NCBI GenBank assembly: GCA_965178125.1
Contig: OZ237755.1
Span: 558,001-622,000, forward strand
Length of the DNA: 64,000 bases
Reading direction: 5' to 3'
DNA from: Bilabrum cf. latius
Taxonomy: Eukaryota
Shown: positions 2,684 to 63,735 of the stretch, piece by piece
How positions within the stretch are numbered: position 1 is the stretch's first letter
How the letters are laid out: every line of letters starts with the position of its first letter
Notes under the pieces: model-generated
What the model saw: only the letters and a program-made list of their open reading frames with translations
Told to the model about the DNA's origin: nothing
The model's database searches: none
Position numbers and translations under genes: made by a program

Positions 2684-5600
2684 TTAAGACGCTCCACCGG
2701 CCACAACGCGAGCTTGCGAAGTGGCAAGGACGCCAGGCCTGCCGTAGAGTATGTCACGACTGTTTCCAAGTACCTGCCGCTACGCCACGAGCGCCATGTG
2801 CGTTTCGTACGCTGCCTGTCGCCTCCACTCTCGCAGCCTCGCTGCATCGCTAGGACCTCTTTCCTCGCCCGAAACTACCTCACCACCCAGAGCAGCAGCT
2901 GTGGAACCGACCCCCACCGAACCAGCACTCCTTTCCCTGAGCCGCATCTCCTCGATCGCTTCCCGAGGGTCCATCAGCCCGAGCACGTCTACCTCCTCCT
3001 CCATGGGACAAACCGGAAGTGGGGCATCTTGTTCCTCGGGCGTGAGGCCCAGCACCGGACCCCGCGCCTCGTGATGCAGGCCCCCTCCCGCACCCCAGCT
3101 GCCCCCCTCCGCATCGGTTCCGCCCTGCAGAGCCACCTGGTCCCCGGGCACGTAGCCCCTCACACCAACCCCTTGCCACCCGTGCGGGCCGCCTTGATCC
3201 GATCGCACCATCGACACGCGGACTTGCCTTGCACTAGTGCGCGCCGCAGATCCACTGCCAGGGCTCGCTTCTAGACCCGCAGCGCCTGTTTCTCCCCCTA
3301 CTAAGTCCACTCGCCTCCGTTTCGCGCCTGCCTCGCCAGCATCGCCAGCCATCCCATCGTAGTCACCTGCGGCAGACCCTGCCTCCCTTGGCGAATGAAG
3401 GTTGTTCGTCCTCGACCGCTTAGTACCAGGAGCGGTCACTGCAACTGGTTTACCCGTGCTTCTGCTTGCAGCTTGCCGCCTCAGGGGGTCCTCAAATGGA
3501 CCTCTTCCACCGTCCCCATCACCTCCATGTGAGCCTTCCTGCTGTCCGTGATCAGCCAATACAGCCGGCTCATTCGGAAGTTCTGTTCTAGCCGCAATTC
3601 TCGGGTGCTCCTCCAAGGCCCCTGCCGCTCCGAGGATCAGAAGGGCCGCGGTTGGCTCCTGCCCGATCGCATATGGAATGGGGGGCTCATCGCTCCTATC
3701 TGTGAGTGCCGCATCAACGGCATTGCCTGACTGCTGCTCCCGCTCGTGCTAGGCGCATGCTAGGATGGTAATTGCACCGTAATCCCCTTCAAGGGGCAAG
3801 TCGCCGCATTCAGGATCGTTCGCAGACAGCTCTGCGCCCTCAGAAGAATCCTCATCAGCAACAGCGCTCCCACTGCCGTCCAGCTCTGCGCCCTCAGAAG
3901 CATCCTCATCAGCAACAGCGCTCCCACTGCCGTCCAGCGGGCAAGCACCGCGACTGCGTGCCACGGAGCCGCCCATGCGACCGACGTCCTCCTCTGCATC
4001 CATAGGATCCTGGTTAGCGGCGGAGATCGAGCTACTAGACTCGGAGTCCTGCTGCTACAGCCCAGCGGGCAGAAGGCCAGCGGTCTGTGCAGTCGGTCGC
4101 CAATCGGGGTTGGCCCGCAGCCACGCATCAAATGCCTCCCAGCTGTCGAACGTGCCGACTGGATCCCACTTTCGCAACGGAGTAGCCAAAGGTAGAACTC
4201 TGCCAAGGTCCAGAGTGGCGGGGTCAGCTACCACACCCTTTGCCAGCGCACCGCTTTTGTCGGAAGACTGCTGGGTGCGAGCGGCAATTATCTCGGCTGC
4301 TAGGCTGGGCGAGCTGACCTAAGGTCCATCGGTCGTTCGATGCACTGAAGGCAGCAGCTTTGCTCTGCGGCGCCACAACGGGACCATTTGCTCCATCAGC
4401 TGCGCGTTCAGTCCAGCGACTGCGCACATGTCGACGTGTTGCAGCGCTTTGCGCGACACCAGCAAGCGCATCTGCTCGTCGATGAGGTCGTGCTCATCCT
4501 CGGCCTCCACGTACTCGAGATTCTGCGTCACTCGCACGTAACCGATGGGAAACTCGTGCCTCTCTGATACGGGCGTCTGGCCCCACATGACCATATGACC
4601 GGAGCAGCTGATCGTGGCGAGTTCGCCGCGGGTGGGATGCCACGCAAGCACGCTGATCCTGTCCGTCGTGGCGCGCAGCCGGCCAAGGAATCGGCTTGAA
4701 TGGGTCGAGTATGCCAGGGCACAGTGGGTCTCTAGCTGAACGTTGCTGGCAACGGGCTCGCCCACCGGCACGTCTGGTTCAGTGTGAGCAATCACCACGC
4801 TGCCGTCGTTGGAGAGAGTGGCCTGGGTCCATGTTGCGCACCCTTTTGGCGGATAGATCATGCACCTGGCCCGCAGTGTGCAGGCATCGACAACGACAAG
4901 TGGCCCGCGAAGCACTGAAATCACGAGGCAGTCTGGCGGGGCGGCATCTTCCTCGTGCCATAGCTTGCTCAGCACCGCGCCGAGGGGAAGGATCCGAGTC
5001 TCCTCGGGTAGCTGTCGCTAGCCTGGCCGTTCCACCGACTCCTGCCTACTGACAACATTTGCTTGACTTACTCGACCAATCGTGCCTGGCGATAAAGGCG
5101 GGGCGGCTGGTGGCTTCGAACGAACAGTGCCTAATTGGCCAAGAGTGCTATAGTGTGGAAGCACCTCCTGAATGCGCAAAGTGCTGGGCGCTTCGTGCAA
5201 GCCATTCATCCACGGCCCGTCAGTGCCTCTCACATCCACGATACCACTATCCACCGTAGGCAGCTCGTGGTGCCTTCCACTTGCATTCGCTGCGCGCATG
5301 CGCTGCAGCGCATCTTTGGCTTCCACCTGATCCTGAGACTGGCCGTCAGGGCCCTCAGAGTCGACGCTTCTCCGTGGATTCCGGCGACTCGGTCTCCTTG
5401 TACTGTCCCCGCCTGTCGAAGCTGCAGAGCTTGCGGATGACTCGCCTTGCGCCCGTGATTCTTGATCGGTTTGTTCAGCTGGTGCACTGTCCCAATCCAA
5501 CAACGTGCCTTCGATATCGCTTGAATGCAAGCTCACCACTGTTGTTGCTTGGCTGCTGGATGCAGTCGACTTTACGTTTGCACTGCCAGCACCCCGACCA

Positions 5601-10037: not shown

Positions 10038-13000
10038 TCACCACCCAACAGACGTGCCCTTGGGATCCAGCTCGGAAGACAGCAACTCAAACTGTAGCCC
10101 ATCTTGTGAGTACGCATTGGCACCCATCTGCCCGTCTGCCGAGGCAGCGCCGCCCCACGAGCTGGTGCTAGCGGAAGGCCACCCATCACCCCACCCTGCC
10201 TATGGTGAGTCTTGCGAGGCAGGCCCAGGCGCCCAAGCAAACTGACCGGAGCTGTCTGGCACCCGAGAGAAATCTGCAGGCATGCTTTCCGCACCCATAT
10301 ATCCAGCAAACTGGGGCATAGCAAGAATTCCATCGTCGCCTTCGGAATCGCTTGTCGCCACAGAGCCATCGCCGCTGCAAGCGGTCGTACGCGTACCACC
10401 GAATGCTGCAATGCTTGGTCTCTCCCCTGCTCCCTGCACAATCAAAGCACCCTTCGTGCCATCCAAGGGGGAGGTATTCCGGCCCCGGTAGTCGCTATGC
10501 GAGTCAAGACTCTCCATGTCTCCTGCATCCTCGTCATCTTCGGATGGCTCCATAGCGACAGCACCGTGCTTCCTTTGGAGCCGTGTAGCAGGCCGAAATG
10601 CTCGCCTGCCTTCAATCGAACCACCGTTCGCGGAGCCTTGGCTGCCAAAGGCCTACCAAAAGCGGGGTGCGTGCGCTTGCGCTCGGCCGCGCTTCCTCCC
10701 CCCACCGGCGCGCAGCGTGGCATCCTCCTCCTCCTCGCCAGAGACTTGGTCTGCCTCCTCGCAATCAAAGCCCGCTGCACTAGAGCCCTCTGTTGAGCCA
10801 TATTCGTCTGCTTCTGCCCCCCAAACTCTGCGCCTAGTGCGGCGGACCCCTGACCTCCTTCCGCCCTCCAGCGACAGCGGCCGAGGAACCCGTTCCTGCG
10901 GCGCGGCCGGCAGCAGTAGGCGGTCGTACTGCTGCATACCGGCACGCGCCCCGTCCACTCCAAACTTGGTCCCAAGGGCAGCGCGCCAGTCCGTGCCAAG
11001 CAGCACGTCTGCCATTGGCTGACGCCACACCCGCGGCAGCATCTGCTCTATGCCGCGCAGTAGCGATCGCAATCTCGCTCGAGGGTTCTGCTGATCCCAG
11101 CCGTTCCCTCCGGTCCCATCGTGGTTGAGATACCCACCGGACCTGTCCACCTCACCAGGGCGCAGTGGACCCATGCTGGGAGCCTGCTGAGGTGCCTATC
11201 CGCTTGCGTGCCTCTCCCACCCGCCCCAGGCAGCCAGGGACAGTGCCTTGAGCACAGCGACTGTGGGCAGCTTCGGAGGCCCGCGCTCTGCAGAGACGCT
11301 GGGGGTGGCAGCGGCAGCGGTGCCGGTCGGGGATCCAGGCGAGGAGGACGCCACAGCAAGGAGCCTCAAGCTGCGGAGCTGCTCCGGGGCTAGTCGCACC
11401 GTGAAGGATCGGATCAGCTCGCCGGGGCTGGAGCCGGAGCCGCCGCTCACCCACGCCTAGCCGCGCCCAACGCTGGCTGTTCCCGAGGTTGCCGAGTAGC
11501 CGGAATATCCACCCTCCCTGGATGAGAATGACGACTCAGACTCATCCCACATGCCTGGTGCCTGTGCCCTGTAGCCATCAGCATTCAGGGAACCCGCTTC
11601 AAAGCGGAGGATGCACAGGGCGCGCGCTGGCTTGCCGGGGACTCCGGCCCTGAGGCGGACCACGACAGGCCCGGGAATCCCAGTAGCGGCTGCGGACGGA
11701 CAGGCAGCGCCTCTACCTCCTGCCCTGGCGGCATCAAGCGCCGCATCGTTGCGGTCCCAATTCGCAGCATCTCCTTCGGCACAGCCGGGGACGGCTCCGA
11801 ATCCGCTTGGTTTCTAGCTGTAGCAGTAGCCCCGCTGCAAGTCCTCGATGTCTGGTCTGGGTGCCTATCCACCCGCCTCCAAGGACGGCGAGGTCGTCGC
11901 CCGACCTGATCCGAATGATGCGCTTGAGGCACCCACCGAATGCCACTCCATCGGACTCGGGCTCGCAGACCGCGTGCCTGGCCCGTGGTGTGCCTGTGAA
12001 ATGCCCATGTTTGGAGACTCGCTATCGTGGAAGCATGCATCATCCGATTGCCCGCCGACGCTGAGCCTGCCGAGTGCTTCCTCTAGTTCGCTGTCGAGCC
12101 CATCACTACGCTCGTCCTCGTCGTCGTGCATGCCGGCCTGGGCCCTCTGTCGAGGCATGCGCCTGTTCGTCTCCAGCCCCAGCGCCCCGTCAATCCATGA
12201 AGTTGATTTGCTGGAGGACCTGGCCCCTGCCCACCGTCCCGGACCCTTGCTGCTCTGATTAGACCGCCACGGTCGGTCCGGCGCGTGTCTCGCAGCCCCC
12301 TTGCCTGTGCGAGGGTTCAGAGTAACGTCTACATCGAACGCCATGGTGGCAGGGCCGCACGCCACTTCGGCTGCCGTGCCGTCTATCATCGCCCCGTCGT
12401 CCACGCTCCAAGGTGTGGGATCAGGCGCCGTAACGCGCGGAGGTGCACATTCCTCCCGAGCTGCAGAGGCGCCTGCGGTCCCGTTGGCCATGCGAGACCC
12501 CCGTTCTTCCGTTCCGTACGCCATGTCACGGCGCCGCTTGGAGGAGGACCGCAGCGGAGCCTCGCCTGAGGTGCCTGTGGACCCAGAGCATCCAGACGTG
12601 AAACCAGAGGAGCCCGACACAGCATCTGGGGCACGTGCTGTCCTCTGTCCTTTGACAGCAGGCAGCGATGCTTCTACTGCAATACCGCCGGCAGCTGCCA
12701 TCTGTGCATACGATCGCTTGCATCCTATAGGCGGTCCAGCCGAACCAGGCAAAGCCAAGCTTCGTCGGGTCGGGCGCTTCGTCGTCGTTCTCGTGCGCAG
12801 TGTGCCGAGCCGGCTCCTCCCGCGACGGCTCTTTGCTCGATGCGATGATTCGACTGTGGAATCCGCTCTCATCATTGCAACAAGCCGTGCGGCGCGGTCT
12901 GGTCCGCTTCCTACCGCATCGCTGCTAGAGGCCCCCGTCCCCGTTGCATCAGTGGCCCACTTGAAGTTACTGCTGCAAGCGGCTTGTGGTGCATCGAAAA

Positions 13001-13856
13001 TTGGGGGATGCGCACCACTATTCGGCAGCGAAGGCCCCGTACTAAAACTGCCTGCAGTTCTAAGGCTCTGTGCCGCGATCGGACCAGCGCTAATAGCATG
13101 ATGCAGGGGAGTCTGCACGCTGCTCGATGCGTGGAGCAATTGCACGCCAGGCGCCATGGATGCACAAGCAGATCCAGAGGAGGAGCTGGAGGAGGCAGCC
13201 GCAGAGGATGATGAACTTGCCGATGGCGCTGATTTCCGCTGATCTAGAGAGGGGAAACCGGCATAACAGCTACTGCTACCGAGTGCGGGACTTTTAGATC
13301 TTATCGAGCTGCCCCACGCGTCTTTCTTGCCGCCCGTCACCGCCCCGCCTGCGGTCCTCGTGGACCGCATCTTTAGACTGCTGCCAATGGTATCAAGCTA
13401 AACCTAGCTATTTCCGAGCTCTGCGGCTGCGTCACTGTCACATGTCTGTGCCCAGGCGAATTGCGGAGAAGCCTCGCTGTCGTCTTGCATAGCCATACAT
13501 GCATCCCATGAAGGGTCACATGAACCATTCGAACAATTTAGCATCCATTGACTGCTAGAATTCGTCCCCTTGCCCGCTTTAGCGGAGTCTGGGCGCTCGG
13601 AATGTTGTCGAAACCGTGAGAAAGTGGAGGCCACGTTTCCCTACTCCTGCTACAGTGCAGCTCCAGGACTAGTCACATCTACTGGATATCGCATGTTTGT
13701 ATACTTATCTTCGGCCGCGAAGCGCTTCGGAGGTGTTTGTGCCCACCCGGCTGGCTCACACCGCTTCAAAGGCAAAATAGCGGGGCACGGCGCAACTCCT
13801 GACCGCTACGACCAAGCAGCTGACGGACCTCTCGATCGTCGGCGATTCACGTTCAT
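10038..13856 (-). CDS. Large Ser/Ala/Gly-rich protein of unknown function, ~1272 aa, single exon (TAG=Gln)
   Basis: Six track ORFs (13404, 11865, 11457, 11196, 10653, 10200) share one frame. From ATG 13856 to TGA 10038 the only interruptions are 11 TAGs. Confidence 0.72.
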
Positions 13857-14202
13857 ATTTATCGCTACTGAATTCAACAGGTATGCCGTACTTTATTCTA
13901 ATTTAATCAATGTGTCGGGCATGAGGGAGGAGGTTGCAGCCACGCGTCCAGTGATCGGGCACTTCCGGTATTCCAAAAGGGTTTGGCTCAGCCCGACACG
14001 CCTTTCTATGGCGATCTAGATGGAAATTAGTATGGTTAAGTCGCCATTCATCAAGCAATGCAACACGTCAACACTCGGCTGCAAGCGATAGACCTCATGT
14101 GCCCCTCGGCACACACCGCATCTCGCTGGCACCAAAAACCGACGCAATTACGCAACACCTGCTTGCGTTCCGCCAAATCACCCCCCAGCGGAGACGAATC
14201 GA

Positions 14203-16264
14203 TCAGCAGCAGGACGGGTTGCCCGCGGGACACCTGTAATAGTTGGGCCACTGGCTCGGGCACTTGCTGTTGTAATCCTTGGTGATCGGCACGGTGTTAT
14301 AATCAGGGAGATCGAGCTCGTAAGGGCCCATCAGCTGGCAGAAGGTGCCGGCAGGCGTGGTCCGAAGCCCCATGGGACAGTTCTTGCTGTTGAAGAAATC
14401 CGGCTGGTAGATCTTTGTCTTGTAGTTGTCCACAGGCATCTGCTCCTCTGACTGGAAGCTGGGGATGGCGTCCCCGAGCCCGTTCTGCCAGGCGCGGGCC
14501 GCGAGCACCGAGCACACCATAGAGTAGTTGCCGGCGTACTTCCATGCATCCTGCTCCTGCTCAGCGATCACCGAGCTCATGGCAATTCCTCGGCGCACGA
14601 TCTCATCGGTGGCGCAGTCAAAGTCGGTGCAGTTGAGCCCGAGCCGCTTGTTGAGTCCCATCGTGACGAGTGCGTGCACGCTCACGCCAGTCTCGGTCTT
14701 GGGCAGGATCTTGTCGAGGGCGAAGAAGAGGCCCTGGGTGGCCTTGTCTGTCAGCGGCAAAGGCAGGTTCATGTTCACACCGTTGGCGTAATCGTCGATC
14801 CAGGTGGCGATGAACGAGCTGCGACCGAAAGCAAACAGCACGGTGGCGTAGATACAGTGCAAAGCAACATGAGACACACGGGGAACTGCAGGGGCAACAC
14901 GGACGGGGATCGTGTTATCGTGGCGACTCTCTCACTTGTACCCGTAAGGCAAGCCCTCGTTGGCGTCGAACCACTTCCAGAACGTCTCCTCGTCCCACTT
15001 GTCTGACAGGGACCTCTCGATGGGCAGCAGGCCCACGTGGTACGTGGCGTTGATGGCTTGCTCGAACCACTGCTTCCAGGGAGTCTTGATGACGCCATAG
15101 GGCGCAGGCCAGTAGGGCTTGGGAGTGAACGGGTCCGCGTCAGTGGACTCCACCACGAAGAGCTCGTCCCCGCGCCACACGGCCACCGCAGAGTGGCCCG
15201 TCTGGCCCCCGCTGCCGAATGCGATCATGGGGTCCAGGCCGTCGAGCCTCAGGATCGCGAGGTAGTCTCCGGAGCGGATGTTCTCTGCGGGCACGAACTG
15301 GTGCTTGCCGTAGGGCACCGGGCTCTTGGGGAACAAGCCCCTCTGGGCCAGGAAGTCCTTGTTGCGCTCCACGAGACCGGGGCCGTCCCCGAGGAACAGA
15401 TTGACGGTCGCCAGTGCGTTGTCGACCGTGCCCAAGATGCCGCAAGGGAGCGCGAACACGCGCATGCCGCCTTGCTTCACGTCCTGCACGGCGAGGTTGC
15501 CGGGGAGCGGGTCGAACCGAGCCTCCACGGAGGGAGTCAGCTCGCCGACCTCAGCGAAGGCGCCGCCATACGAGGTGAGAACCAGAATAATGTCAGAGCA
15601 GAGAAGCTTCTTGGGAGAGCCCTGGCCTACGAATTGGATGGAAGCGCTCTTGTTGGACTCGGTCATGGTCATGGTTGCCTGGATCGAGTCGAAGCAGCTA
15701 GAGTTGAGAGTCGCCGTCGCAACGTTGGAGCCGGCAGCAGGCTGCAGCGTACCCAGCTCTACGGGAAGCAACTGGAATCCAGCCGAAGTGTTGTAGCACC
15801 ACCTGCATTCCAGAAAGGCGAGCATCGTTGGAAACGGCCAAGAGATTCAGCTGCGGCAACACCGTTAGCGTACAGGGCAACAAGAAAGAGCAGGCGGGGA
15901 ATTTCATCTATAAAAACGGAACGGTAAGGCGGAAACCACGAGCATGGTGCAGCACAAAAGGCTCTCACTGGTCGTCGATATCCGTTCCCACAGGCCAGTC
16001 TGCAGACTCCAGCGCACTCCAGGTAGACTCGTCGCGAGACTCAACCAAGTCACCGAGCAGCTGAGCTGTAGCAGACAGTACTGAATCCTTTGGGGCAGTT
16101 GCCCGTAGCTCTCCAAGATGGTGACGGCACTACGTCCCATCGCTCTGGCACGACGGCAACTCTCGGATCGCATCCACCATCCTTGCCTCAATACCAGCTG
16201 TTGAGGCCATCACACTACAAATGGATCCTATCGATGCCAGCACAAAGGCTGTAAAACTTCGCAT
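14203..16264 (-). CDS. Secreted protein with a permuted papain-like (NlpC/P60, His-before-Cys) domain, ~592 aa, 3 exons
   Basis: Signal peptide MRSFTAFVLASIGSICSVMA. Exons 16264-15969, 15802-14936, 14818-14203. IRSGDYLAIL..GHSAVAV..LFVVES..GLPYGYN..MVCSVLAARAW. One TAG at 16130; ends TGA. Confidence 0.75.
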
Positions 16265-22725: not shown

Positions 22726-22891
22726 GATACTTGTTGGTTTCCAGTCGTTATACGATATAGAAACGCTGCAAAGGGCAGCAATCGGGCGGGACCTCTTGCG
22801 CCAAACAAAGCCGGAACCAGCGGCGCTACTTCGATTCAAATTGGTCGATTTAATTGACCACTCCTTCGCACATCAAGCACACGTTAATACA

Positions 22892-42605: not shown

Positions 42606-42822
42606 TGAACAAAGTATCGGCAGTAAGCTGGATTGACGCTGGTGCACACGAAATGCGCCGATTTTGATCCATAGATTGCTCCGGATCAACCAACCATTAT
42701 TGGTGTTGTCTTTCAGAAATTTTAGCGACAATGGCGCGAAATACTACTAACTGCTATATTACAGCTGTGGTTGTGCCTAACTACGGACAAAACAAGAGCT
42801 CGGTGCCTAGATCCAAGTGCAA

Positions 42823-46229: not shown

Positions 46230-46435
46230 GCTTGATAGCCACTTGTCCTAGTGCACCGATTCAAGCTATGGTATGGCGCACAGAAGCAATCTCCGATTGC
46301 ATGGTCCGGAATGGAAATTTCCGAGAAGTGCACGAATTCAGGCTTCTAGCACTCTGCATTAGATCATTCTCCCCAGCCACTCCTTTGTCGTAGATTTTTT
46401 GAGTGCACCACTTTTTGTTCGCGCGCGCTTTACCC

Positions 46436-51365: not shown

Positions 51366-51576
51366 TGGTACCCCCTTGTACGTCTAAACTTTGGAACGAC
51401 GCTAGATGGTTCGATCCACCGCCAACTTAAAATATGAAATTTGCCGAGCAAGTAGTAAGGTGTATTTACCAGCGAATCTTCGGTCAGGTGCAGCGAACCA
51501 AGTCGCGCTGGCCGCGATACTGAGTCGGATACTCCCAGACCAAACGCTTGCCCGTGGTCATCTACGCGCCCAGCAC

Positions 51577-53352
51577 ATGGCAGAGCAGTCCACACTTAGG
51601 ATTGAAGCATTGCTTTCTGAAGCCGCCGGGGAATCGAGACGACCAGCGGTATTTCGGGTAGCAAGGCTCCGGTTGCCGTAGTACAGCGCTCGACTCGCGG
51701 GACGAGAGCGCGCTTCCCCAAGGGAACCGGCATGTGCTCGGGGCAAATTCCTGCAGATTGCATCTAAAATTCGTAGGCATATCTTGGATGTCAAGCCATG
51801 GTAGTTGCAGTACGAGCCATTGTTGCAATCCGTGCCTAGAATGCTCCTCACAACTCTCGCAACCATGCACCACGGCGACGCCAGGGCTGCAGCGCACATG
51901 ATTGGCATTTTGCTGGACTACATTCAGCTAGAAGACATGAAAGCGAACAGTTCGAGTGATTTGGCAGAATGCCTGCTTCTGGCTTGTGATTTCAACTCGT
52001 TCAGTGTCGCGTGGAAAGTAGCAATAGCCGCACAAGGGGCTCACGCTCGACTCCTTCGCACCCCCAAGGAGCACGAGACGAAACGATATAATGAGTACGA
52101 CTTTGGCATCGTAATCAGAACGGACGAGAGTGCAGTACAACGATGCTGCCGCCTGCAGCGGTGGGAGGCACTCCTCGGGGTGCTTGCTGCTGCAATGCAA
52201 GGAGCTGCACGGGAGGTGCGTTCGGTACTGAAACATCATGCAGCTACTGGAACAAGCGATCATAGGCTGTGCTCATCCAGCCTGCAGCTGGAGCTAGCGT
52301 CCACTCGAGAATCCTCGCGGTGCAGCAGCATCACCGAGCCAGCCGAGTCGATTGGCAGCCGGGGCAGCTCCAGAGCCAGCGAAGAATGCTCGACACGCAA
52401 AAGTGTGGAATCCCTTGTGCTTGAGGGAGACAAAGAGGCCTCATCGGTGGCACTGAAGCAGGTGCCCAGCAAGATGGCCGAACTTCGCGAGTCGCTCGGT
52501 CACATTGCGAGCACTCTTGCATGCTACAGGCGATCCCGCACGCTGCGTCGCACGCACGGAAGACCAAGGAGAGCTCTATCAGGGTCTGAATTCCACGTCT
52601 AGATGCACGACTCTGACGACCCCGACGAACCTGATGACGCCCTCGCGGCTCTAGCAGAGCTGGCCGGTCGCGTCGATAGCCTAGTTCGCTCCCATGTTCG
52701 TTCCTTTGCGGCATTGCAAGAATCTTTGAAGCACGAAACGGCTTCGGAGCTGAACTGCATCGAATCAGGGTGGGGCTCTGGAATCGAATCGTCACAGGCT
52801 GAGGCTTCGGTGGCTGCGGCCTTGCCCGTTCGGCGTGCTCATATGTTGCCAGCACCTTGCCAACTGCCACCGGCAGGTTGTGGCAGCCCGAGGCGCAAAC
52901 AAGCTCCAAACGGAATGTGGGCTATGGAAGAAGACACCCCTGCAGTTCTTTAGTCGGACCCGAGAAGCAAAGCCGAGGAAGGCATGCAGAAGGGGCAGCA
53001 GCACCCATTCGAATCTTTGGCCTGGAACATCCTTCGAGCAACAGAAATTGACCGAAGAGGTTTGGATGAGGCATTAGGAGGAGGCACCGACGGGAATGCC
53101 TGCCTTGCTCGTCAAGGTAGAGACAAGCTGGTCCTCGAGCAAGTGCTCGACATCGTACATGCCGAGCGACCGAGCCGAAACTGGGCGGCACGACGTAGCT
53201 TAATACTTTTTCGATAGTCGTCTCGAGCTGCTAGGCTGCAGTCTAGGGCTCAAATGGCTGTCTCAAATACGCCAGGCATGGCGAAGGTGCTGGGCTATGG
53301 CAAGCAGGCCGGAGATGCAGTCTTTGCGTGTGCTGAAACCGATTCGGGCTAA
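51577..53352 (+). CDS. Helical protein of unknown function, ~591 aa (TAG=Gln)
   Basis: Track ORFs 51406, 51805, 52603 and 52984 share one frame joined by TAGs at 51679, 51802, 52600, 52951, 53215; ends TAA 53350-53352. Confidence 0.62.
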
Positions 53353-53370
53353 ACAATCCAAAGGTAATGC

Positions 53371-56300
53371 TTACTATCCCGTGCCACGACCCACAATCTC
53401 GATGTCGCTATCGTCGTCGCTAGACGTCAACTCGATCGCAACGGGTACTTCACCCCCCTTGGGCACGCTGCCCTACTAGCCAGGCGCAGGTTGCGCTGGC
53501 GGTGGTGCCGCCGGCTCTGGCTGAACCTAGGCCTACGCTTCTGAGATGAAAGTCTGCGGCGCCTGCCATCTAGCACTACCATCGTCCAGGGCATTAAACT
53601 GCTCGCTCCGCTGAACTCCCGTGCCCTACCCTGCTGGGTGTGGGGCCGGTTGCACTGGTGCTGCAATGTTCTGGGCTGTGCCGTTGCTGCTGCCGTCCGT
53701 CCTGCCCTAACCCTGAGTGCTGACCGCCGCACTGGCTTCGTCCACTCTGCGTCGCTTGGATTGAGGCCTCTCTGAGTCTTCTCTTATGGTGTTGCTGGTG
53801 GTGTTGCTGGTGCCGCCTGCACCATGCGACGGTGGGCTGCTGTGAACATCCCCAGAGGCATGACCCGCGGCGAGGTCTTGGGAAGGCTTGCCGGCAGAGC
53901 CACTCTCGAGATCCTCTGGCACAGTTCCTCCATCCAGGGAACAAGCGGATCGGATCATCTCCCTCAGCTGCCTGAGCTCGACGCACACTCTCCGCACGGC
54001 CGGGTGGATCCTGCCGCGCCCAATCAGCCGATTCCTCTGCGCGCTCTCTATCACCGACCGCCTCAGGCTATCCAGCGCAGTGCCGATGCTGGCGTACACG
54101 TGCACGCCAGCTGCGCGCCTCCATGAATCAGGGAGATAGGTCTTTACTCTGACCCTCAGCTCTGGCTGGTGCCTGCGGGCCGAAGCACGAGACGAGGAGG
54201 GCCCGGCAGAGGCCCTGGCCGGACTGCTTGTTCCCAAGCCACCCAGTGAGCTTTGGGACGCCTAAGACGAAGGACCGCTATTGCTGCCTTGGCTCTCCTA
54301 AATTGACCCAGACTGCAATGACGGCCTGCCGCTGCTTCCGTGGCTGGCCTGCCCCGACCCGCTGTGCCAACTCAATGTGGAAATTGCAGGCTGGAGCTTC
54401 TTCTCGTTGATCAGCTCGGCGTGCTCGATCGGCACACCTGAGGTAAGCACTTGAGCGAGGTCCGCGTGAAGCAGGGCCACGGCATCCGCAATGGTCGTGA
54501 GCATGAGCACGATCCGCTGCCTCTTGCCCATGTCATCGCACGGCGCGTTGTAAAACTCCGAACGAGGGAGCGCGCCATGGCACGCTGCCATTGCGTCCCC
54601 GCCCGTGGTGCACCGCCTCACCACGCCCACTGCCGCGCTTTGAGGCTTGCTCCAGAGCTTGCCCAGCCGAGTGTTCGTTGACGTGCCGTGGCCTGCATCA
54701 GGCGTCCATGATACCTCCCAGTCCTCGCGTAGGAACCAGTACGGCGTGGTGCTTCGTGTCGGCATCGCCTTGACTGGCCCCATCTTCTGCGCTGCATCGT
54801 TGCCGTTCGACTTGGACTCGGACTCGACACCGCTATCGTGAGCGGCCGCGCCGCTAGACGTAGGTGCATCCGCCCTGCCATGCCCCCCCATACGTTTATT
54901 CACAGAATCTGCCGCATGGCGCGCCTGATGCATCGCCCTCTCCTCCATCGCTTTCTTGCGCTCTGAGACAAGCCTGCAGTTGTACGACTCGACCATCTTG
55001 AGCTTGTGGATCTGGCTCTCGAGCATTTCCCTCGGGAACGAGGACAGTTCCAGGTTGGTGGGGTCGCCCCGTTGCTTGCTGGGGGATCGCATCCGCGCGC
55101 GAGGGACCGGGAATTTGGGGGGCGGGGGTGGTACTAGGGATCCTCTATCAGCCCCTGCAGAGAGCGAGCGGATGCCGCCGCCCGAGATGGAGGCTTCTGC
55201 GGGCGGGCCAGCCGACGAGGCGGGGTCCATCTCTTGGCGAGATCGCTTCACGCCGGCCGTAGCAGCGGCAAGCAGCCCGGGAGAGCTCCTGGAGAGGGCT
55301 CGGCCCTTCAGGCTCCGAATGGTCATGCGCTTCGACGCCTTGGACCACACTCGTGCCAGGGCGTTTCGCCAGCGTCTCGTGTCTCGGATCCCCGTTGTTA
55401 CCATGAGCTCGTCACCACCATCTCCCAGATTGACTAGCACGCAATCCAGCATCCTCGGTAGCACCTGCTGCAGCGACTTGCTGCACGCGTCCACGATGGA
55501 CTTTCTTGCAGAAAGGCAAGCGTCGGCAGTCGCCACGATGCCTCGCTTCTCGTGAGGCCAGCAGTACGCGCATGCCAGGACTTCCGCAGCGTCCATTCGA
55601 TCGTCCTCGATGTTGGATGCCTCAATCTGCGTCAGGCTGCAAATCACCAGTCTGCCACATCGCGCAGCCAGACACGGATCAATCAGCAGCCCAGCGGCCC
55701 ACGCTTCCGACAGGTCTGCCAGCACGGATATCGAGGATCGGTGCACCTCTGCTTGCCGATCCGTGTCTACCGTATGCGACGCCTTTACCTGCTCCACTTC
55801 GTCTGCGAGCTATCGCGTGAATCGTTTGGACCAGAGGGATGGCATCTTGTGCAGTGGGTCGTCCTGATCCACGCCTTTCATCGCGTCGCCCAGGTGCTCC
55901 TCGAACTTGCTCGGGCCTGCCATGCCGGGGCTGTAGGCCTTCCGCTTCTAACGAACCCTGCCAGAGCTCGATTTGCGGAGGCCACGGTGCACGGCCCACT
56001 GGGCATCATCGACGCAAGCAGGAGAACCGTGGATCCAAGGCAGGCCTCTGAGCTGCGCAAGCGCAGACCCCCTAGGAGGCGGAAGGAACAAGGAGAGAAC
56101 ACCGCCCCACGCTCGCTGCAACAGCTGCCTGTCCACTTGAACCGCAGTAGCATCTGCGTCTGAAAGCTTGTAGGGCTCGTGCTCCAACTCAATGCGAGCA
56201 TGCACCTCTTGGCCGCTTGCCGCAGCTTGCTTGGATGATGACGACTATGCCGATGACGCTGCTGTCGCAGAGCTGGGTGCTGCTCCAGTAGCACCAGAAG

Positions 56301-57876
56301 CAGAGGACTTGCTCGATTGCCCGTCCATCAAATTATGTTGCGCCCCTGAAATGGCCAGCTGCCTTGCCTCCTTGCCAGCGAGCAGGTGGCACGCACCCGT
56401 TGCGAACGGGAGAATGGCAACTGCCAGCTCCGAAGCGTGCTGCACAAGCGCACAGGCCCGCAGTAGCTGGGCTCTGGCTGCTCTTACACCCGCGCGGATT
56501 CTGCCCCCCGGTGAGGCAAGCTTTTGCGCATACATTAGCTTGAATAGTTTGTGAGTGCCGCTGATGTCCACGCCCCCGAAATATGCCATGCTCTGCAAGC
56601 TGATGCGGTTCTGGGTAGGGTCCAGCACGTGCCTCTGGTGGTGCTTTGCCTTCATGGGGTCGTGCAGCATGACCACCCTCTTCTACAGACTGTGCTCGAT
56701 GCTAGCTTGCACGTCGGCTCCGGCTCCTGACGATGCCCCTTGCTTGGAACGCTTCCCATTCCCATTCCCATTCCTGTTCCTGCCCTTGCCTTTGGCCTTG
56801 CCTTTTCCCTTTGCTTTGGTTGATTTTCGCTTGTCACCACCCTCGCTGTCCTTAGTAGCGGCTTCATCCTCTAATTCAGCGTCTGAGTCGTCGGAATCCG
56901 CACTAAACTCGCTGTCATCGTCATCCTCATCGTCGCCTGTGCCGGCCTTCCTTTGCTTCCCGCTGGCCTTTCGTCTTCTCGCAAGTGCTGATGCTGCTGC
57001 CGTGGCAGCCGGTCGTTTACCTCTCCTGCCACCTCTCTTGCCAGCGCTGATCTTTGTACCATCACCGCCGGAGTCTTCATCCTCTTCAGCACCGGCCTTG
57101 TCTTCCTCCTCCTCTTCATCATCATCCAAGCGTCCAAAAGCCGGGCCATCCATGGCCATGGCCACCTGCACCACCTTGCGATCCGTCTCAGCATCCGCAG
57201 GCAGACTCGTGATGACTTCATCGTGCGGATCCTCTTCGTCCTATCGCCGGATTTTCAGATCCACTGCCAGGCCCCTGCCCGAAGCGAGCACGTACCCCGG
57301 CGGGACATGCTGCACCTGTGTACTACCAGCGGCTCCGGAACGTGGGGAATCGGGGCCATGCTCAGGTGCAACCATCGGAAACAGCTCGATCATGTCAGGC
57401 CAATCAGCAAAAGTTTCCCCTGTGCGGATGCAGCGCGAAAACTCTGCAACCAAGGTTCGTGCAGCCATTTGCATGCTGACAGCCACCAAACGCGGTTTCT
57501 GGACTACCAGATACCGCGGCTAGTTATCACTAATTGCACACTTTGAAATTTCACGGAGCAAATCGACGTACTGTTGAATGGTTGCAGGGTCTTCAACCTA
57601 AGCAGTTGCCCCGAGCAATGCATGCTAGTATGCATCACTCGGCGGGTGCCTTGGCTCCGGAATGGGCACACTAGGCGCAACACGACCAAGCTAAACTACT
57701 GCGCTGCGTACTACTGCGGGAACAATATCATTGCGAAAATCCTGGACAGCACCGCCGTACGCGATGCCACCACGCTGCTGTTCAACCGCCTCTGAGTGAG
57801 TAACCCAGCGCTAGCTCGCACGACCATACGGTCGAATATACTAGGCAGCAGATTTTGCTGCAGAGCTGCCAGACAT
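53371..57876 (-). CDS. Large probable nuclear protein of unknown function, ~1501 aa, single exon (TAG=Gln)
   Basis: From ATG 57876 to TAA 53371 there are 20 in-frame TAGs and no TAA/TGA. Acidic and basic tracts; C-terminal SIM-like VAIELTSSDDDSDIEIV. Confidence 0.75.
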
Positions 57877-58055
57877 CGTTCAGGCAATCGTGTTTTGGAC
57901 AGGCACATTTGCCGCTCGTTTGGCATAAAGAACACCTTACTAATACAGAAAAATCTCATTTGTGTGGTTTCTTTACCCTACAAATTATTCTGGTATTCTG
58001 GTATTCATTTTGCGACAAAGGCACTGAAAGCGAGTTTTTGTGCATCGAGGTTGCC

Positions 58056-58849
58056 ATGCGCCGGTCATTTGCTGCTCTTGCGCGTACAGTTAAGGCTACG
58101 ACTGGTATCGCTGGCCTCCCAGTTGTTCCGAACTCCAAAGAGGTGTTGCAGTAGCTGGTCGACAAAATGCTGAAGGATGTTCAGGTAAGCCCACGGCACG
58201 TAGTCTATGTTTGAATCTTTGAATGCAGTGTCTGTGTTGTTCACCTCCCTGCGATGCGATCTTCGTCGGTAGCGGAGGCGGTTGGCAGTGTTAGCAACTC
58301 TTGTCGCATCACGCAGATTCTCGACGAGGGCGTCTTCTACCGAAAGTACGTCACTAGCACGTACACCAGAATGAAGAAGATTTTAGAAGAAAACGACGAT
58401 GTAAGAGATGCATCCCGATGTGCAGCAAATCACCGAATCATGGAACGAATCACACGCCCAAGATCATCTCGCGGTCTTGTATCCTTGTGCAGATTGGCGC
58501 TATCGAGGACTAGCTTGGGTACGGGTAGGCCGAAGAAGCCATTGAAAAGATTAAAAAGCACCTGCGGCTGATCCCTAGGCTTGCCTAGGTGCGCCCTTGG
58601 GAGATGGAGGTTCCTGACGTCGATGACGAGGATTTCCAGGACACGATGGATCAGGGCATGATCAGCGTGATGGAGGAGGAGAACCTGGACAGATTTTACG
58701 GCATGACCCCCGAAGATCTGCGAAATGCCGGAGAAAAGTACCCGAACAGAGAAGAGTTCACGGAGCACTTGCGCAGGCTGCACCTGGAGCGCATGGCCAG
58801 GGAGGAGGCAGGCAAGGGAGATGTGGCGGGTGGAGGCGGGCGCCAGTGA
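58056..58849 (+). CDS. NDUFA5: NADH:ubiquinone oxidoreductase subunit NDUFA5 (B13), ~189 aa, 3 exons (TAG=Gln)
   Basis: Exons 58056-58184, 58317-58400, 58493-58849. KATTGIAGLPVVPN..L..YRKYVTS..IED[TAG]LGYG[TAG]AEE..RPWE. TAGs at 58152, 58511, 58526, 58586; ends TGA. Confidence 0.88.
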
Positions 58850-59181: not shown

Positions 59182-61418
59182 ATGCCATTCACGATCCAAG
59201 TAAAACAGGTAAAAGGAAGCCCGAGCCCTGTCCAAGTAGAGGGATCCGAAACGGTGAGAGGCTACAGGCGGGGCCACAGTTTGACCGGCCGTCACTATTC
59301 TGCTCGCTCGGCCACCAGAGCATGAAGCTTTTACTTGCACCATATAGTCCAGTCTGGTGGCATTTTCAGTTGTGTACAAGACCTTTGTACGCTCATGGAC
59401 CTGTTTTTGTCTATGATTGAGGCTTGAGACTGCCTTTGCTTCCGCTGAGAATTCAACTAGTTCTGCCGATCATGCGGGGACCATGCAGCCATTTTGACAC
59501 ATTGTTTGGTAGTCAGTACATCTATATGAGTGCCAATATTCATTAAGCTGCAAGATTTGCCACCGTGCCGCAGATCGGTGCCATCAAGGACAAGATCGCT
59601 TCATCCCTCGGGTGGACGAGGGAAGGCATGAGGCTCGTGTTCTCCGGGAAACTTCTGAAAGATGATATGACTGCAGAGGCTGCAAAGTTGAAAGAGAACG
59701 GCCTTGTCATCGCAATGGTGAAGAAGGTGAGAGCAAATCGTGCTTGCCAGCGAGCTGCAGACTGGCACACGCTCGCGCGGATGGGGGGCATCCTTGTTAC
59801 CGCCGGCAGTCGTTCCACCACTAAATCTTGTTGTTTGTTACTGCTGCAGGGAGGAGCCGCCAAGCCAGCCGGAGCCGCTGCCCCAGCCGCAGCTCCCGCT
59901 GCAGCCCCTTCGCCAGCGCCCGCCCCGGCGCCCGCGCCCGCGCCCTCTTCCGGCGCAAGTGCCTACGGAGCAGCCTCATCGCCCGCCCCGGCCCCCGCTG
60001 CCGCAAACCCGTACGGCGCAGCAGCCGCGGCCCCGGCCCCCGCTCCCGCTGCCCCGGCCGGACTGAGCATTCCCGGCATGAGCGGCTCCGAGGCCAGGAC
60101 CATGGTGGACAACCTAAAGGAGATGATGGGAAGCCCAGAGGACCAGGTGGTGGCAGCTCTGAGGGCTGCCTACGGCAATCAGGAAAGAGCCGTTCAGTAT
60201 TTGCTGGAGGGGATTCCCCCCGGGGCTGGAATGGGGAATGCTGGCGGGATGGGTGGCCCTGCCGTTCCACCAGTGCCGGCCGCTGCGCCTGCACCCGCAC
60301 CGGCACCAGCACCGGCACCAGCCCCGGCGCCAGCATCTGCGTACCAGCCCGCAGCAGATGCACCTGCGGCTGCTTCCCCCGCACCTGCACCTGCACCCGC
60401 ACCTGCGGCGGGCACATCAGCCCCCGCCCCTGCCCCCGCTCCAGCATCAGCCCCAGCCCCGGCCCCGGCCCCGGCCCCGGCTGCCGGTGCCTCAGCTGCA
60501 GCCAAGGAACCTTCGCCCTGGTCCGAGGAAGGCCGCAGGAGGAAGCCCCTGCCTCCCATCCTGGAGAACCTCAGAACTTCGGCTCGGTTCCGCACGGTCC
60601 GTCTGCAGGTGCAGAAGAACCCTTCTATTGTTCCCCGAGTCATCGAGAGCCTTAGTCAGCGGAGCTCTGAGATCAGGGATGCTATCCTGATGAACAAAGA
60701 GGCCTTCATCGACATGCTCAACACCCCTGTTGACGAGGACCCGGCGGTCAAAGCCGCGGAGGCGGCGGCTGCTGCGGGTTCGCCCGCTGCTGCCGCACCG
60801 GCACCAGCCTCGGGCGGCTCTTCCGCTTCGGCCCCGGCCCCGGCAGCCGCACCATCCCCTGCCCCTGCTCCCGCACCGGCTCCCGCACCGGCTGGTGGCG
60901 GAATCCCTGGCATGCCCGGCATGGGTGGCATGGGCGGCGGCATGGGTGGCATGGGCGGTGGCATGCCCGGCATGGGCGGCATGGGTGGCATGGGCGGTGG
61001 CATGGGTGGCATGGGCGGCGGCATGGGTGGCATGGGCGGCGGCATGGGTGGCATGGGCGGGATGGGCGGTGGCATGCCTGGAGGCATGGACCCTCGGATG
61101 CTGGGTGCCATGATCGCGCAGATGAACCCGGAGCAGAGGCAGGCGCTCGCGCAGAGAATCGGCGTGCCTGTGGAACAGCTGCAGATGATCGGACAGATGA
61201 TGGCGCAGGGTGCAGTGCCTGGTGGTGCGGGCGGATCGGGCGGTGCTCCCCCGGGCGGTGTCCGAGTTGAGCTGACCCAGGAGGAGGCGGGCCAGCTGAG
61301 GCAGCTGATGGAGCTGGGGTTCTCGCAGTCGGAGGCGCTGCAGGCGTACCTAGCTTGCGACAAGAACTTCGAGATGGCTGCCAACCTTCTCTTCCAGCAG
61401 AAGGACCAGGAGAGCTGA
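59182..61418 (+). CDS. RAD23: RAD23-type ubiquitin shuttle (UBL-UBA-XPC binding/STI1-UBA), ~597 aa, 3 exons
   Basis: Exons 59182-59253, 59574-59726, 59850-61418. UBL RLVFSGKLLKDD, UBA1 ALRAAYGNQERAVQYLLEGIP, UBA2 LMELGFSQSEALQAYLACDKNFEMAANLLF. No internal TAG; ends TGA. Confidence 0.93.
60899..61090 (+). repeat. Coding GGCATGGGT/GGCATGGGC (Gly-Met-Gly) tandem repeat in RAD23
   Basis: Imperfect 9/12-bp units encoding GGMGGMGGGM. Pro-Ala repeats also lie at about 59870-60060, 60270-60500 and 60780-60895. Confidence 0.85.
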
Positions 61419-61686: not shown

Positions 61687-63735
61687 TTAGGTCTCCTCAT
61701 CGGGAGCACACGTGAGCTCCCACGCGAACAGGTCGGCATCCTGCATCGCCACCTGCAGCCTGACGGCCTTCCCTGCGAACTAGCCAAGATCGCCCGTCAC
61801 ATTGCGCGCAGCACCGCAGTTAGTCATCGTCGCCAGTTCGCTGGGAAGCAGTCTTTCGCTGGCTGCTTGACGCAGCGCCGTCTAATTCCATGCCACCAGG
61901 TGCGCCGTGTCGTCACCCCTCAACGGCACGCAGTCACTGACGCCAAAACCGGGGTAAGGGCTGCGGTCCTGATCCTGATCCACTCCGGTGATCCCGAAGA
62001 GGACCGAACCGGCCGTGGTGGCGCGAGCGTTTACCCGGAGACGGAGCACAGTGGGGCGTCCCCTCACATCCAGCACTCCATCGCACGCACCAGGGCTGGC
62101 TAGCTGCACGACGATGGTGGTCGCATTGCCGACCGCAGCGCTCGGCTGACCCTCACCGTTCCAGCGGGCGACCCCCGACGAAGCTCCCATTACGTCATCT
62201 GCCGGCCCCTACATCGGCCCAGTGGACAGGCTCGCGTGCCCTTCGAAGCGCAGGGACCCGCTGAGCACGCCCATGAACGCGTGCCCAAAGTCCTCCCAGG
62301 AATAGGCCAGTCCGCCCGCGTGGGTCATCTGCCCGCCCCAGTAGAACACGGTCCAGCGCGGTGGATAGCACGCCCTGTCATACCGGCCCGCAAGCTCGGC
62401 CTGGCTGCACTCTGACGACCACGGAGCCACGGTCCCGCCCGTCGTCATAAACACAAAGCCAGCGTCGCGGTCGCTGCCCGTCGTGTTGAAGATCTTGCTG
62501 CTGGGGTCTTTCCAGCCTGTGCCTCGCCTCAGAATGGGGGCCCTGTTGTTCCCTGGGTACACAAACGAGAGGTTTCCCGAAGCACCTGCGTCCCCACCGC
62601 TTGCACTCAAGCTGCTTGCGACAAGGGTACGAGGCGCGTTGACACTGCCCTCGCGCCCCACCCTAGCAAAGAGTGCTCGCACGTCCATCACGCCGTCGTT
62701 GTCCCCGGCGCGGGCATTTGGAGCCCCCGACTGCCACGGCTGCCAGTGCCACATGAAGCTTGGCTGGATCGCCAGCACGTCGGCCTACTCGTGGAGGAAG
62801 GGAGCGGGGTTGTAAATGTCGAAGCACGCCTCGGGGTCCGGCGAAGAAGTGCGCAGCACGGTGAACGGTTGGGACCACCCTGCAAAAGGAGGGGCGCTAG
62901 AGTTCCCGCTAGCCCTATGGGCGGTGCGCTGGAGCACTCGCTCTCCCCCGCCGAGCAGGTGCTCCGCAGAAGAAGGAGCAAGAGACGCGGAGACCTGCCG
63001 AAGCGAGGCGTATGCCTGCCCGCAGTAGCCCCCAGGCGTGCCGGCGTCAACGCGGCCGAACGCGGCCCACACTCCCATTCGCTTAAGATGGACGAGGGCC
63101 GTTTGTGTGTCTGCAAATTCCTTCGTGGTGATGATTGGCGTGGGGTTGCTCCACTGCCCAAGACCATCCGGGCTCTCCGTGATATAGAGGTGCCTGTCTG
63201 GCGTATTCTCCCACACAAATAAGAACCGACGATTCTTTGTGCTATCATCTAACCACAAGCTGCCCATGTTTTCGTTCGGACTCGTCTCAAAGACTCGGTT
63301 CGTAGGAGATCCATCCGTCCAGGGAAAATACTGCAGCCTAGGCTTTTCCCAGTGCACTAAGTCGCTGCTATTGGCTACACATACATGCTCCTTATTGAAA
63401 TAGTCCGTATCATTGAGGCACATGTAGTAAATCCGATATTCTGGGCTTTGCTCAGGGGTGAGGGGTGGGATCGCAAGGAATGCAGTGTAGAATCCAGCTT
63501 GTAGCTCCCACGGGTGCTCCGGCTGAACTGCAGCTGGAGCTCCGATATTTTTTTTAACATCATGGGGTTGGATAGCAAGCGAGCCGTTCGTTGAATCGAG
63601 CATGCTGTCATCAACAAAGGCATGGGGACGACCGAGCTCGAAAGATGCAATTGTACCCAATCTTGTCCGATCTGCTGCTGTGCAGCCCAGTGTGCCAAGT
63701 AGAATCCAAGATACCATCAAATTGACATTAGCCAT
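61687..63735 (-). CDS. Secreted bacterial-type five-bladed beta-propeller glycoside hydrolase-like protein, ~682 aa, intronless (TAG=Gln)
   Basis: Signal peptide; FVDD, PEHPWE, YRIYY, CVANSSDLVHWEKPRL, ESPDGLGQW, LRFEGHASL, PGFGVSDCVPLRGD..W, terminal DLG[TAG]FAGKAVRLQVAMQDADLFAW. TAGs at 62785, 62209, 61882, 61780; ends TAA. Confidence 0.72.

Follow-up and report, generated by a model that had tools for sequence, protein, structure and literature searches.

Evidence that UAG encodes glutamine, with UGA and apparently UAA as terminators, in a nuclear locus of possible bicosoecid affinity

The window, which is the whole 64-kb stretch of nuclear DNA that was analysed, is compact and intron-poor, with a GC content of about 60%. 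About 20 nuclear genes are carried on both strands between positions 2684 and 63771, with in-frame TAG triplets in 17 of 21. On the forward strand, the large exon of a PMS1/MutL-type mismatch repair gene (23046-26438; five TAG) is followed by the main exon of an ABCA-type ABC transporter (26713-33618; 11 TAG; Pfam ABC_tran, 1.2e-58), exons 2 and 3 of a GH2 glycosidase (33984-37017; five TAG) and the last exon of a gene of unknown family (37683-39638; four TAG), all four ending in TGA; the PMS1 and GH2 assignments were also made with Pfam. On the reverse strand lie a frame of the RUS / UVB_sens_prot family (39798-42758; up to 11 TAG; Pfam, 1.5e-77) and a VLCAD-type acyl-CoA dehydrogenase, the homologous part of which spans 42823-44595; the first three TAGs of the latter frame are upstream of this part and were not counted as codons. 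An NDUFA5/B13-like complex I subunit gene (57804-58849, forward strand) holds a TAG at 58526-58528. Four frames end in TAA, namely a 1585-codon frame for a WD40-containing protein (reverse strand, TAA at 2684-2686), the frame at 51388-53352 (forward, TAA at 53350-53352), a 1502-codon frame with 20 TAG at 53371-57879 (reverse, TAA at 53371-53373, the preceding codon being TAG) and the frame at 61687-63771 (reverse, TAA at 61687-61689). The four genes without TAG are a pyrophosphatase, RAD23, the gene at 14203-15846 and a partial gene at 2-817. An in-frame TGA in the third of these (14932-14934) was rejected, as it falls inside a 117-nt GT..AG intron.

When TAG was treated as a sense codon, six frames of more than 1000 amino acids were opened in the window, against none under the standard code or with TAA taken as sense, and this gain is far beyond chance. 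TGA was the commonest stop triplet on the forward strand (795 TGA, 488 TAG and 211 TAA), yet reading it as sense also opened no frame of this length. Across the 21 ORF segments, 110 TAG were found among 17,506 in-frame codons, with no TAA and no TGA, so that if TAG is counted as glutamine its share of the codons for this residue is about 14%. The sequence-only reading had put the in-frame TAGs at about 120, in 19 of 21 genes, and had listed 23 gene ends (19 TGA and four TAA); the recount gave 110 TAGs in 17 of 21 genes and 21 ends (17 TGA and four TAA), which leaves the direction of these claims standing with slightly lower numbers, because the gene models differ. Its statement that no modelled exon contains an internal TAA or TGA held without change, and every run of glutamine codons that it cited was found as described and in frame: CAA-TAG-CAG at 29998-30006 on the forward strand, TAG-CAG-TAG at 41339-41331 and TAG-CAG-CAG at 4057-4049 on the reverse strand, and CAG-TAG with its last base at 24557 and again at 58154, both on the forward strand. 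Two further TAGs were rejected as codons: the one at 26686 lies inside an RNA-proven intron, and the one at 37587 does not fall in the reading frame of its exon.

The presence of TAG in transcripts was assessed with contigs from three public runs (X5, X7 and X8) from which canonical GT..AG introns had been removed. These runs are not on record as RNA, and their RNA origin was inferred from the spliced contigs themselves; run X5, labelled "RNA? (probably DNA)", was taken to be RNA on the strength of its spliced contigs and of a depth that differs from gene to gene. Five forward-strand introns were delimited in this way: 26623-26712 (90 nt; joint in X5, unspliced in X6), 33894-33983 (90 nt; joint in X5), 35769-35952 (184 nt; joints in X5 and X8), and 37396-37488 (93 nt) and 37597-37682 (86 nt), both with joints in X5, X7 and X8. 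Twenty TAG codons in three genes (11 in ABCA, five in GH2 and four in the gene at 37683-39638) were present unchanged in the spliced contigs, with no differences. For ABCA, a single X5 contig of 7031 nt spanned 26713-33721, GH2 was covered by a spliced X5 contig, and the gene of unknown family was covered by spliced contigs from X5, X7 and X8. UAG is therefore kept in mature mRNA at these 20 sites, as the sequence-only reading implied. Among 18 listed variant positions none fell on a TAG codon; the one coding difference in four runs was C>T at 24625, outside TAG codons, and the remaining positions were all in a repeat at 37063-37219. A TAG/CAG polymorphism between strains was sought in these four runs and none was seen.

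These data bear directly on the view that the TAGs are artefacts of assembly or sequencing error, unrecognised introns, RNA editing or pseudogenes, which is barely credible and has no finding in its favour. For the three genes with RNA coverage, the spliced contigs, in which the 20 TAGs are unchanged, rule out editing, assembly error and splicing, and independent runs of several studies gave the same sequence with no differences. The frames are broken by TAG alone and never by TAA, TGA or frameshifts, and the TAG-broken frames encode full-length ABCA, PMS1, VLCAD, RUS, GH2, DOMON-cytochrome b561-b5 and KH proteins. The same pattern was also seen in a second organism, a relative in which the RUS ortholog (78-81% identity), called with the standard code, is present as three fragments, one of which stops just before the TAG at residue 955 of the window's protein and another of which begins two codons past the TAG at residue 207.

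The meaning of TAG was examined by scoring the 11 TAG sites whose alignment columns had at least 60% occupancy. Glutamine was favoured by 8.6 nats, against log-odds of -1.3 for arginine, -2.1 for serine and negative values for every other residue, and it remained the top residue when any single column was left out. The sequence-only reading of TAG as glutamine is supported by these columns. As a control, the same procedure was applied to 58 sense codons: with every available column it returned the right residue for each of the 58, and with subsamples of 11 columns it did so in 2769 of 2900 cases. The clearest single sites were residue 499 of the VLCAD/ACAD9-type frame (43321-43323, reverse strand), with glutamine in 114 of 120 homologues, and residue 1115 of ABCA (30001-30003, forward strand), which lies between CAA and CAG and has glutamine in 54 of 85 occupied rows (of 120). 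For the NDUFA5-like gene, the TAG at 58526-58528 was opposite glutamine in both of the plant NDUFA5 chains shown for a 25-residue PDB query, at a non-significant E value of 1.3-1.4; the same chains reached 0.0013-0.0015 with a 53-residue exon query. The top PDB matches of that exon were designed TPR proteins, which were judged spurious, and a PDB search with the whole 208-residue frame gave no match.

It was also considered that TAG is a sense codon for some other residue (leucine, glutamate, lysine, serine or tyrosine), as in other lineages. Several columns would fit such a reading: glutamine was rare (at most 8% of rows) in six of the 11 scored columns, residue 137 of PMS1 showed glutamine in none of 120 rows and was dominated by serine and histidine, glutamate prevailed at PMS1 504 and ABCA 1965, tyrosine and leucine occupied the column of RUS 198, and RUS residue 693, a TAG in the window, is leucine in the close relative. 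Little information is carried by RUS columns 198 and 207 and PMS1 columns 137, 504 and 575, which are variable or gapped, and four of 12 ABCA TAG positions had no more than two occupied rows. Variable columns are, however, to be expected for glutamine, because the CAG and CAA columns of the same genes show an equally low glutamine share, with means of 0.24 and 0.22, respectively, against 0.22 for TAG columns and a background of 0.036. Given that all other residues scored negatively, about 10 nats below glutamine, that two near-invariant glutamine columns carry TAG, and that TAG occurs within runs of CAG and CAA, a different meaning was considered very improbable.

Termination was then assessed at the ends of the genes, of which 17 are TGA and four TAA. 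Three homology-defined C-termini (VLCAD, ABCA and RAD23) end at TGA: the VLCAD frame stops exactly where its homologues end, ABCA likewise runs to their very C-terminus, and the last UBA domain of RAD23 finishes two residues short of TGA. These ends argue against an ambiguous UAG, read as sense within genes and as a terminator near mRNA 3' ends in the manner of Condylostoma, karyorelicts or Blastocrithidia. Genes truly ending at TAG would escape notice, because only TAA and TGA were used to bound the frames, and the gene at 53371-57879, which ends in TAG-TAA, has a TAG for which a terminating role is possible. Against this, two TAGs in ABCA lie only 44 and 52 codons before the stop and are followed by a conserved motif that aligns with the ends of homologues, the transcript contigs end 39-103 nt past TGA, and no gene end requires TAG, which makes an ambiguous role for UAG quite improbable. 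In PMS1 the conserved C-terminal endonuclease region is likewise found downstream of the last TAG (26178), in keeping with the earlier claim that conserved motifs continue past TAG.

The status of TAA was more difficult to establish. If TAA also encoded glutamine, about 33 would be expected in the 17,506 codons from the ratio of CAA to CAG (155/517), and none was found; this zero is partly circular, because the frames were cut at TAA. In homology-bounded spans, which are free of this circularity, 5,994 codons contained 28 TAG and no TAA, against 4.0 expected (P = 0.019). A code in which UAA and UAG both specify glutamine (table 6), with TAA simply too rare in a GC-rich 64 kb to be met and translation continuing past the four TAA ends as far as the next TGA, was accordingly judged unlikely, though it is the strongest of the competing explanations. 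In two published accounts (PMC5304391; PMC11687900), the two codons are described as nearly always reassigned together, and the code is recorded for many ciliates, Ulvophyceae, Hexamita, Streblomastix and Amoeboaphelidium, which resemble the window in the change of UAG from stop to glutamine and differ from it in that in-frame TAA is absent here from both codon sets. With 4.0 TAA expected, the power of the non-circular test is modest, and none of the four TAA-ended genes has a conserved C-terminus; read-through at their ends would add 4, 63, 35 and 312 codons, of which the 4-codon extension is indistinguishable from termination. Set against this are the 110 TAG without a single TAA in frame, and the ratios of A-ending to G-ending sister codons, which show that the former are not rare (CAA/CAG 0.30, GAA/GAG 0.38, AAA/AAG 0.32). 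Furthermore, if the convergent TAAs at 53352 and 53371 were read through, an overlap of about 100 codons would arise between two coding regions, and no two genuine ORFs join across a TAA, the merged frames being antisense shadows.

Taken as a whole, the nuclear DNA of the window was best described by a code in which UAG serves as a regular glutamine codon of fairly low frequency, UGA as the main and UAA as the minor terminator, corresponding to NCBI table 15, a reading to which a probability of about 0.8 was assigned. TAG as sense, its meaning as glutamine and TGA as stop are each supported by independent tests, comprising ORF statistics, spliced RNA contigs, alignment-column likelihood and conserved C-termini. 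TAA is apparently a stop, on tests of moderate power, and this part is less secure than the rest; the table 15 code proposed from the sequence was thus borne out for TAG and TGA, with its TAA component reaching moderate support. By analogy with other reassignments, UAG would be decoded by a tRNA-Gln whose CUA anticodon pairs with UAG and not with UAA, and eRF1 would have lost or weakened its recognition of UAG and kept that of UAA and UGA. No tRNA genes were found within the 64-kb window, eRF1 is not among its genes, and no Rfam family reached gathering score in it.

The organism may have stramenopile affinities, near the bicosoecids, and is probably a relative of the flagellate Cafeteria, as judged from sequence comparisons. 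The named best matches of ABCA and PMS1 were mostly oomycetes and brown algae. In a tree of the single gene VLCAD, the window and one other sequence were sister to Cafeteria and one further sequence with support of 89/89, and this Cafeteria-containing group fell inside a 100/99 clade, apart from opisthokonts. The best VLCAD match, which in EukProt carries the prefix of a GenBank transcriptome, is presumably a Halocafeteria transcriptome. The earlier suggestion of a bicosoecid-type stramenopile fits both the best matches and the tree, with the tree resting on one gene at moderate support. A metagenome scan for DNA of close relatives returned a single locus (L001) at 30% identity, which was useless for codon-level comparison. 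No report of a nuclear UAG = Gln code in stramenopiles was found in the searchable literature, so that the description of this reassignment as undescribed agrees with that search, and its independence is plausible, not proven. That a bicosoecid-related stramenopile lineage, comprising two or more organisms whose proteins differ by about 20%, uncoupled UAG from UAA independently and without an earlier report was given somewhat less than even odds. The code variant itself is already known as table 15; it is the lineage that appears to be new.

Code-15 bacteriophages, in which TAG encodes glutamine through a suppressor tRNA of their own, share the table number, but they are phage genomes, whereas the window is eukaryotic nuclear DNA and carries spliceosomal introns. 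Among eukaryotes, changes of UAG without UAA are described as few in the two accounts (PMC5304391; PMC11687900), being listed for Iotanema, a rhizarian, Scotinosphaera and some ciliates. The fornicate Iotanema spirale, as characterised by Panek et al. 2017 (PMC5304391), uses UAG for glutamine with UAA and UGA as stops, its tRNA and eRF1 having been described; it resembles the window in the reassignment of UAG alone, whereas it belongs to the Metamonada and the window comes from a stramenopile-like, aerobic (complex I subunit, VLCAD) organism with a GC-rich genome. Glutamine is also the meaning of UAG, with UAG alone reassigned, in Protocruzia tuzeti and two lineages of phyllopharyngean ciliates (PMC11687900), which indicates that this variant arises repeatedly. 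In contrast to these ciliates, the window is a long piece of multi-gene chromosomal DNA in which ordinary GT..AG introns measure 86-184 nt, and oomycetes, brown algae and Cafeteria provide its best matches. The uncultured rhizarian exLh, another non-ciliate SAR member in which UAG was reassigned alone, uses it for leucine (PMC5304391), a residue strongly disfavoured in the window by the column test.

If confirmed, the uncoupling would give stramenopiles their first known change of the nuclear genetic code, one that would have arisen in a GC-rich genome with UGA, not UAA, as its main terminator. Changes limited to UAG are test cases for the co-evolution of release-factor specificity and suppressor tRNAs, and another independent case would be a data point against the notion that UAA and UAG have to move together. 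Standard gene callers shred these genes, as seen in public protein sets with the three-fragment ortholog of the relative, and table 15 is therefore needed for the lineage; without it, annotation, phylogenomic matrices and metagenome binning would be wrong. The organism would be a free-living, GC-rich stramenopile that is apparently culturable and already has RNA data, and it could be a tractable system for the study of UAG/UAA discrimination by eRF1.

The GC content of the window lies between 56 and 63% along its entire 64 kb, and both strands are densely filled with eukaryotic genes. Pfam matches were obtained for an ABCA-type transporter (26713-33618, +), a PMS1/MutL homologue (23046-26438, +), a GH2 glycosidase (33984-37017, +), a RUS (UVB_sens_prot) protein (39798-42758, -), a VLCAD/ACAD9-type acyl-CoA dehydrogenase (42823-44595, -), RAD23 (59547-61418, +), an inorganic pyrophosphatase (1036-2372, -), DOMON-cytochrome b561-b5, WD40 and KH proteins and, as a weak match, a complex I subunit resembling NDUFA5. 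Spliced contigs prove canonical GT..AG introns 86-184 nt long. The window is protist nuclear DNA and not of phage or organelle origin. Five long TAG-containing frames of 654-1502 codons (10038-13892, -; 53371-57879, -; 20272-22872, -; 51388-53352, +; 61687-63771, -) had no Pfam match at E 0.001 and may be lineage-specific genes; two of the five encode low-complexity, Ser/Ala/Gly-rich proteins. The frame at 45055-46755 (+), open under table 15 (566 codons, 8 TAG, GC3 0.53-0.54), has an implausible protein sequence and is probably not a gene, and no convincing gene model was obtained for 44818-46402.

Under the standard code the longest frame in the window is 741 codons. Reading TAG alone as sense opens six frames of more than 1000 codons (2319, 1585, 1502, 1284, 1257 and 1130), while reading only TAA or only TGA as sense opens none, even though TGA outnumbers both other triplets. 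The accepted coding set of 21 ORF segments (17,506 codons) contains 110 in-frame TAGs and not one TAA or TGA, as the sequence-only reading had held for the latter two; some TAGs of the long frames are intronic or precede the true coding region. At least one TAG is present in 17 of the 21 genes, and the genes end in TGA (17) or TAA (4). Owing to different gene models, these counts depart slightly from the earlier ones (about 120 TAGs, 19 of 21 genes, 19 TGA and 4 TAA ends), the pattern itself being upheld, and the five TAG-containing codon runs cited earlier are all present and in frame.

Editing of TAG to CAG, splicing out of the TAGs or assembly error could each have produced this pattern. 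Four public sequencing runs (X5-X8) were compared with the window over 23046-42758, where three genes are transcript-covered. None of the runs is recorded as RNA, and X5 was automatically guessed to be DNA; however, five GT..AG introns (+ strand: 26623-26712, 33894-33983, 35769-35952, 37396-37488 and 37597-37682) are missing from contigs of X5, X7 and X8, which must therefore come from RNA. The first of these introns is retained, unspliced, in X6. A 7031-nt X5 contig matches 26713-33721 with no differences, a second spans the GH2 gene with both introns spliced out, and a third spans 37683-39685. All 20 in-frame TAGs in the transcript-covered exons are unaltered in the spliced transcripts, and of 18 listed variant positions, 17 lie in an intergenic repeat, one at 24625 and none in a TAG codon, which excludes the three explanations for these genes. 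The repeat (37034-37252, between GH2 and the next gene) is covered 5-10 times as deeply as the flanking sequence in each of the four runs and shows many loose ends and a number of variants; it is a dispersed multi-copy repeat.

The amino acid at TAG was examined by Codetta-like scoring of four proteins, each aligned with 120-147 homologues, using TAG columns of at least 60% occupancy. Over the 11 columns that passed, the log-odds were +8.6 nats for Gln, -1.3 for Arg, -2.1 for Ser and lower for the rest, bearing out the proposed assignment to glutamine; Gln remained first whichever column was dropped (minimum +5.4, without the VLCAD site). As controls, all columns per codon gave the correct residue for 58/58 sense codons, and random 11-column subsamples did so in 2769 of 2900 cases. 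The mean Gln share of TAG columns (0.22) is six times background (0.036) and indistinguishable from that of the window's CAG (0.24) and CAA (0.22) columns. Gln is found in 114 of 120 homologues at VLCAD residue 499, in 54 of 85 occupied rows at ABCA residue 1115 (the CAA-TAG-CAG site) and, as the most frequent residue, in 24 of 92 at PMS1 residue 592. At GH2 residue 425 the best solved structure has Gln and the next three Glu, and a TAG of the NDUFA5-like gene aligns, in both displayed chains of plant complex I, with Gln in a conserved motif flanked by glycine (these chains reach E 0.0013-0.0015 in another search). Counting against Gln, the close relative carries Leu at RUS residue 693, and Gln is scarce or absent in six of the scored columns; in this small sample of 11, these resemble variable Gln columns of the controls.

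Conserved sequence also continues past TAG: a C-terminal motif of ABCA lies downstream of two TAGs, which precede the stop by 52 and 44 codons, as does the endonuclease C-terminus of PMS1 downstream of its last TAG. No gene needing TAG as terminator was seen in the window, although one ends TAG-TAA. The claim that TGA remains a stop was borne out, since both ABCA and VLCAD terminate at TGA, the former in line with its homologues and the latter on the same final residue as its own; the last UBA domain of RAD23 extends to residue 621 of 623, followed by TGA, and contig 3' ends lie 39-103 nt beyond gene-end TGAs. The sole apparent in-frame TGA (14932-14934) lies between two high-GC3 frames, and a sense reading was rejected, as it stands at the start of a frame-keeping GT..AG intron (14819-14935, -; 117 nt, a multiple of three, open except for this TGA).

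The evidence on TAA, the least secure part of the case, is what separates the rare table 15 from the common table 6, in which TAA is also Gln. There is no shortage of sister codons ending in A (CAA/CAG 0.30, GAA/GAG 0.38, AAA/AAG 0.32), and about 33 in-frame TAAs would be expected in the 17,506 codons if TAA shared the meaning of TAG, against none observed; this zero is partly circular, as frames are cut at TAA. A non-circular recount over spans bounded by homology alone (5,994 codons) found 28 TAG and no TAA against 4.0 expected (P = 0.019). Read-through of TAA joins no two genuine ORFs, the resulting fusions being antisense shadows of RAD23, ABCA, PMS1 and the 14203-15846 gene. It would add 4, 63, 35 and 312 codons to the four TAA-ended frames, none of which has a conserved C-terminus, and at 53352/53371 would make a convergent gene pair overlap. 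TAA probably stays a stop, with a probability of roughly 0.85-0.9; the count supports the original claim with moderate power. Just 18 nt separate the TAA stops of the convergent genes (51388-53352, + and 53371-57879, -; stops at 53350-53373), which means that the 3' UTRs of the two must overlap; transcript contigs elsewhere run 39-103 nt past the stop, and the genome is very compact. The minus-strand member, a 1502-codon gene with 20 TAGs and no assigned family, ends TAG-TAA (53371-53376).

An exhaustive protein search with RUS returned three short proteins of a related organism, with 78-81% identity, matching residues 209-402, 572-746 and 749-954, with near-identical copies in Logan and ENA contigs (P0370-P0372, P0520-P0522). 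Their initial methionines are alternative starts of the kind that prokaryotic gene callers produce. One stops exactly before window TAG 955 and another begins two codons past TAG 207, indicating in-frame standard stops in the relative's RUS, partly at the same places; the stop of the third lies opposite a window CAG, where the alignment has no gaps but conservation is poor. A gene caller using the standard code halted at in-frame stops and so split this ortholog into three small annotated proteins.

Of the 782 Gln codons, 110 (14%) are TAG, which shows the behaviour of a rare codon that codon-biased genes avoid. It is rare in VLCAD and absent from three genes with the strongest codon bias: the pyrophosphatase, 14203-15846 (-) and RAD23. 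GC3 is 0.72-0.76 in two exon frames of the first and 0.81-0.85 in the second, whose product looks secreted; that of RAD23 is only 0.68, but it has no CAA against 26 CAG. In low-GC3 genes TAG reaches 24% of Gln codons. Absence from codon-biased genes is expected if a minor tRNA serves the codon. Codon usage and meaning are read from the window, while the decoding machinery is drawn by analogy from accounts of other lineages in PMC5304391 and PMC11687900: a tRNA-Gln(CUA), which Watson-Crick pairing restricts to UAG, would leave UAA untouched, and eRF1 would have to ignore UAG.

Among the named best matches of ABCA and PMS1, oomycetes predominate overwhelmingly, alongside brown algae and other stramenopiles. 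The best VLCAD match is a EukProt transcriptome record (66% identity), possibly Halocafeteria, and the best from a named species is Cafeteria roenbergensis (60%). A maximum-likelihood tree built on 25 VLCAD sequences hand-picked from 121 placed the window and one other sequence as sister to Cafeteria and one other (89/89), within a 100/99 clade apart from opisthokonts. The suggested bicosoecid-type stramenopile fits these matches and this tree, which is of one gene.

No report of a stramenopile nuclear code change was found in the mainly open literature, nor in the searched sections of a stramenopile review (2024) and a culturing guide (2026); the runs date from 2025, and a report may exist. 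Amoeboaphelidium, first suspected of having the same code, is reported with UAR = Gln (PMC5304391 and PMC11687900). The code itself is already known: PMC11687900 describes UAG alone as Gln in Iotanema spirale, Protocruzia tuzeti and two lineages of phyllopharyngean ciliates, whereas its meaning is Leu in a rhizarian and Ser in Scotinosphaera. The TAG = Gln code of the window is of real interest to researchers of code evolution.
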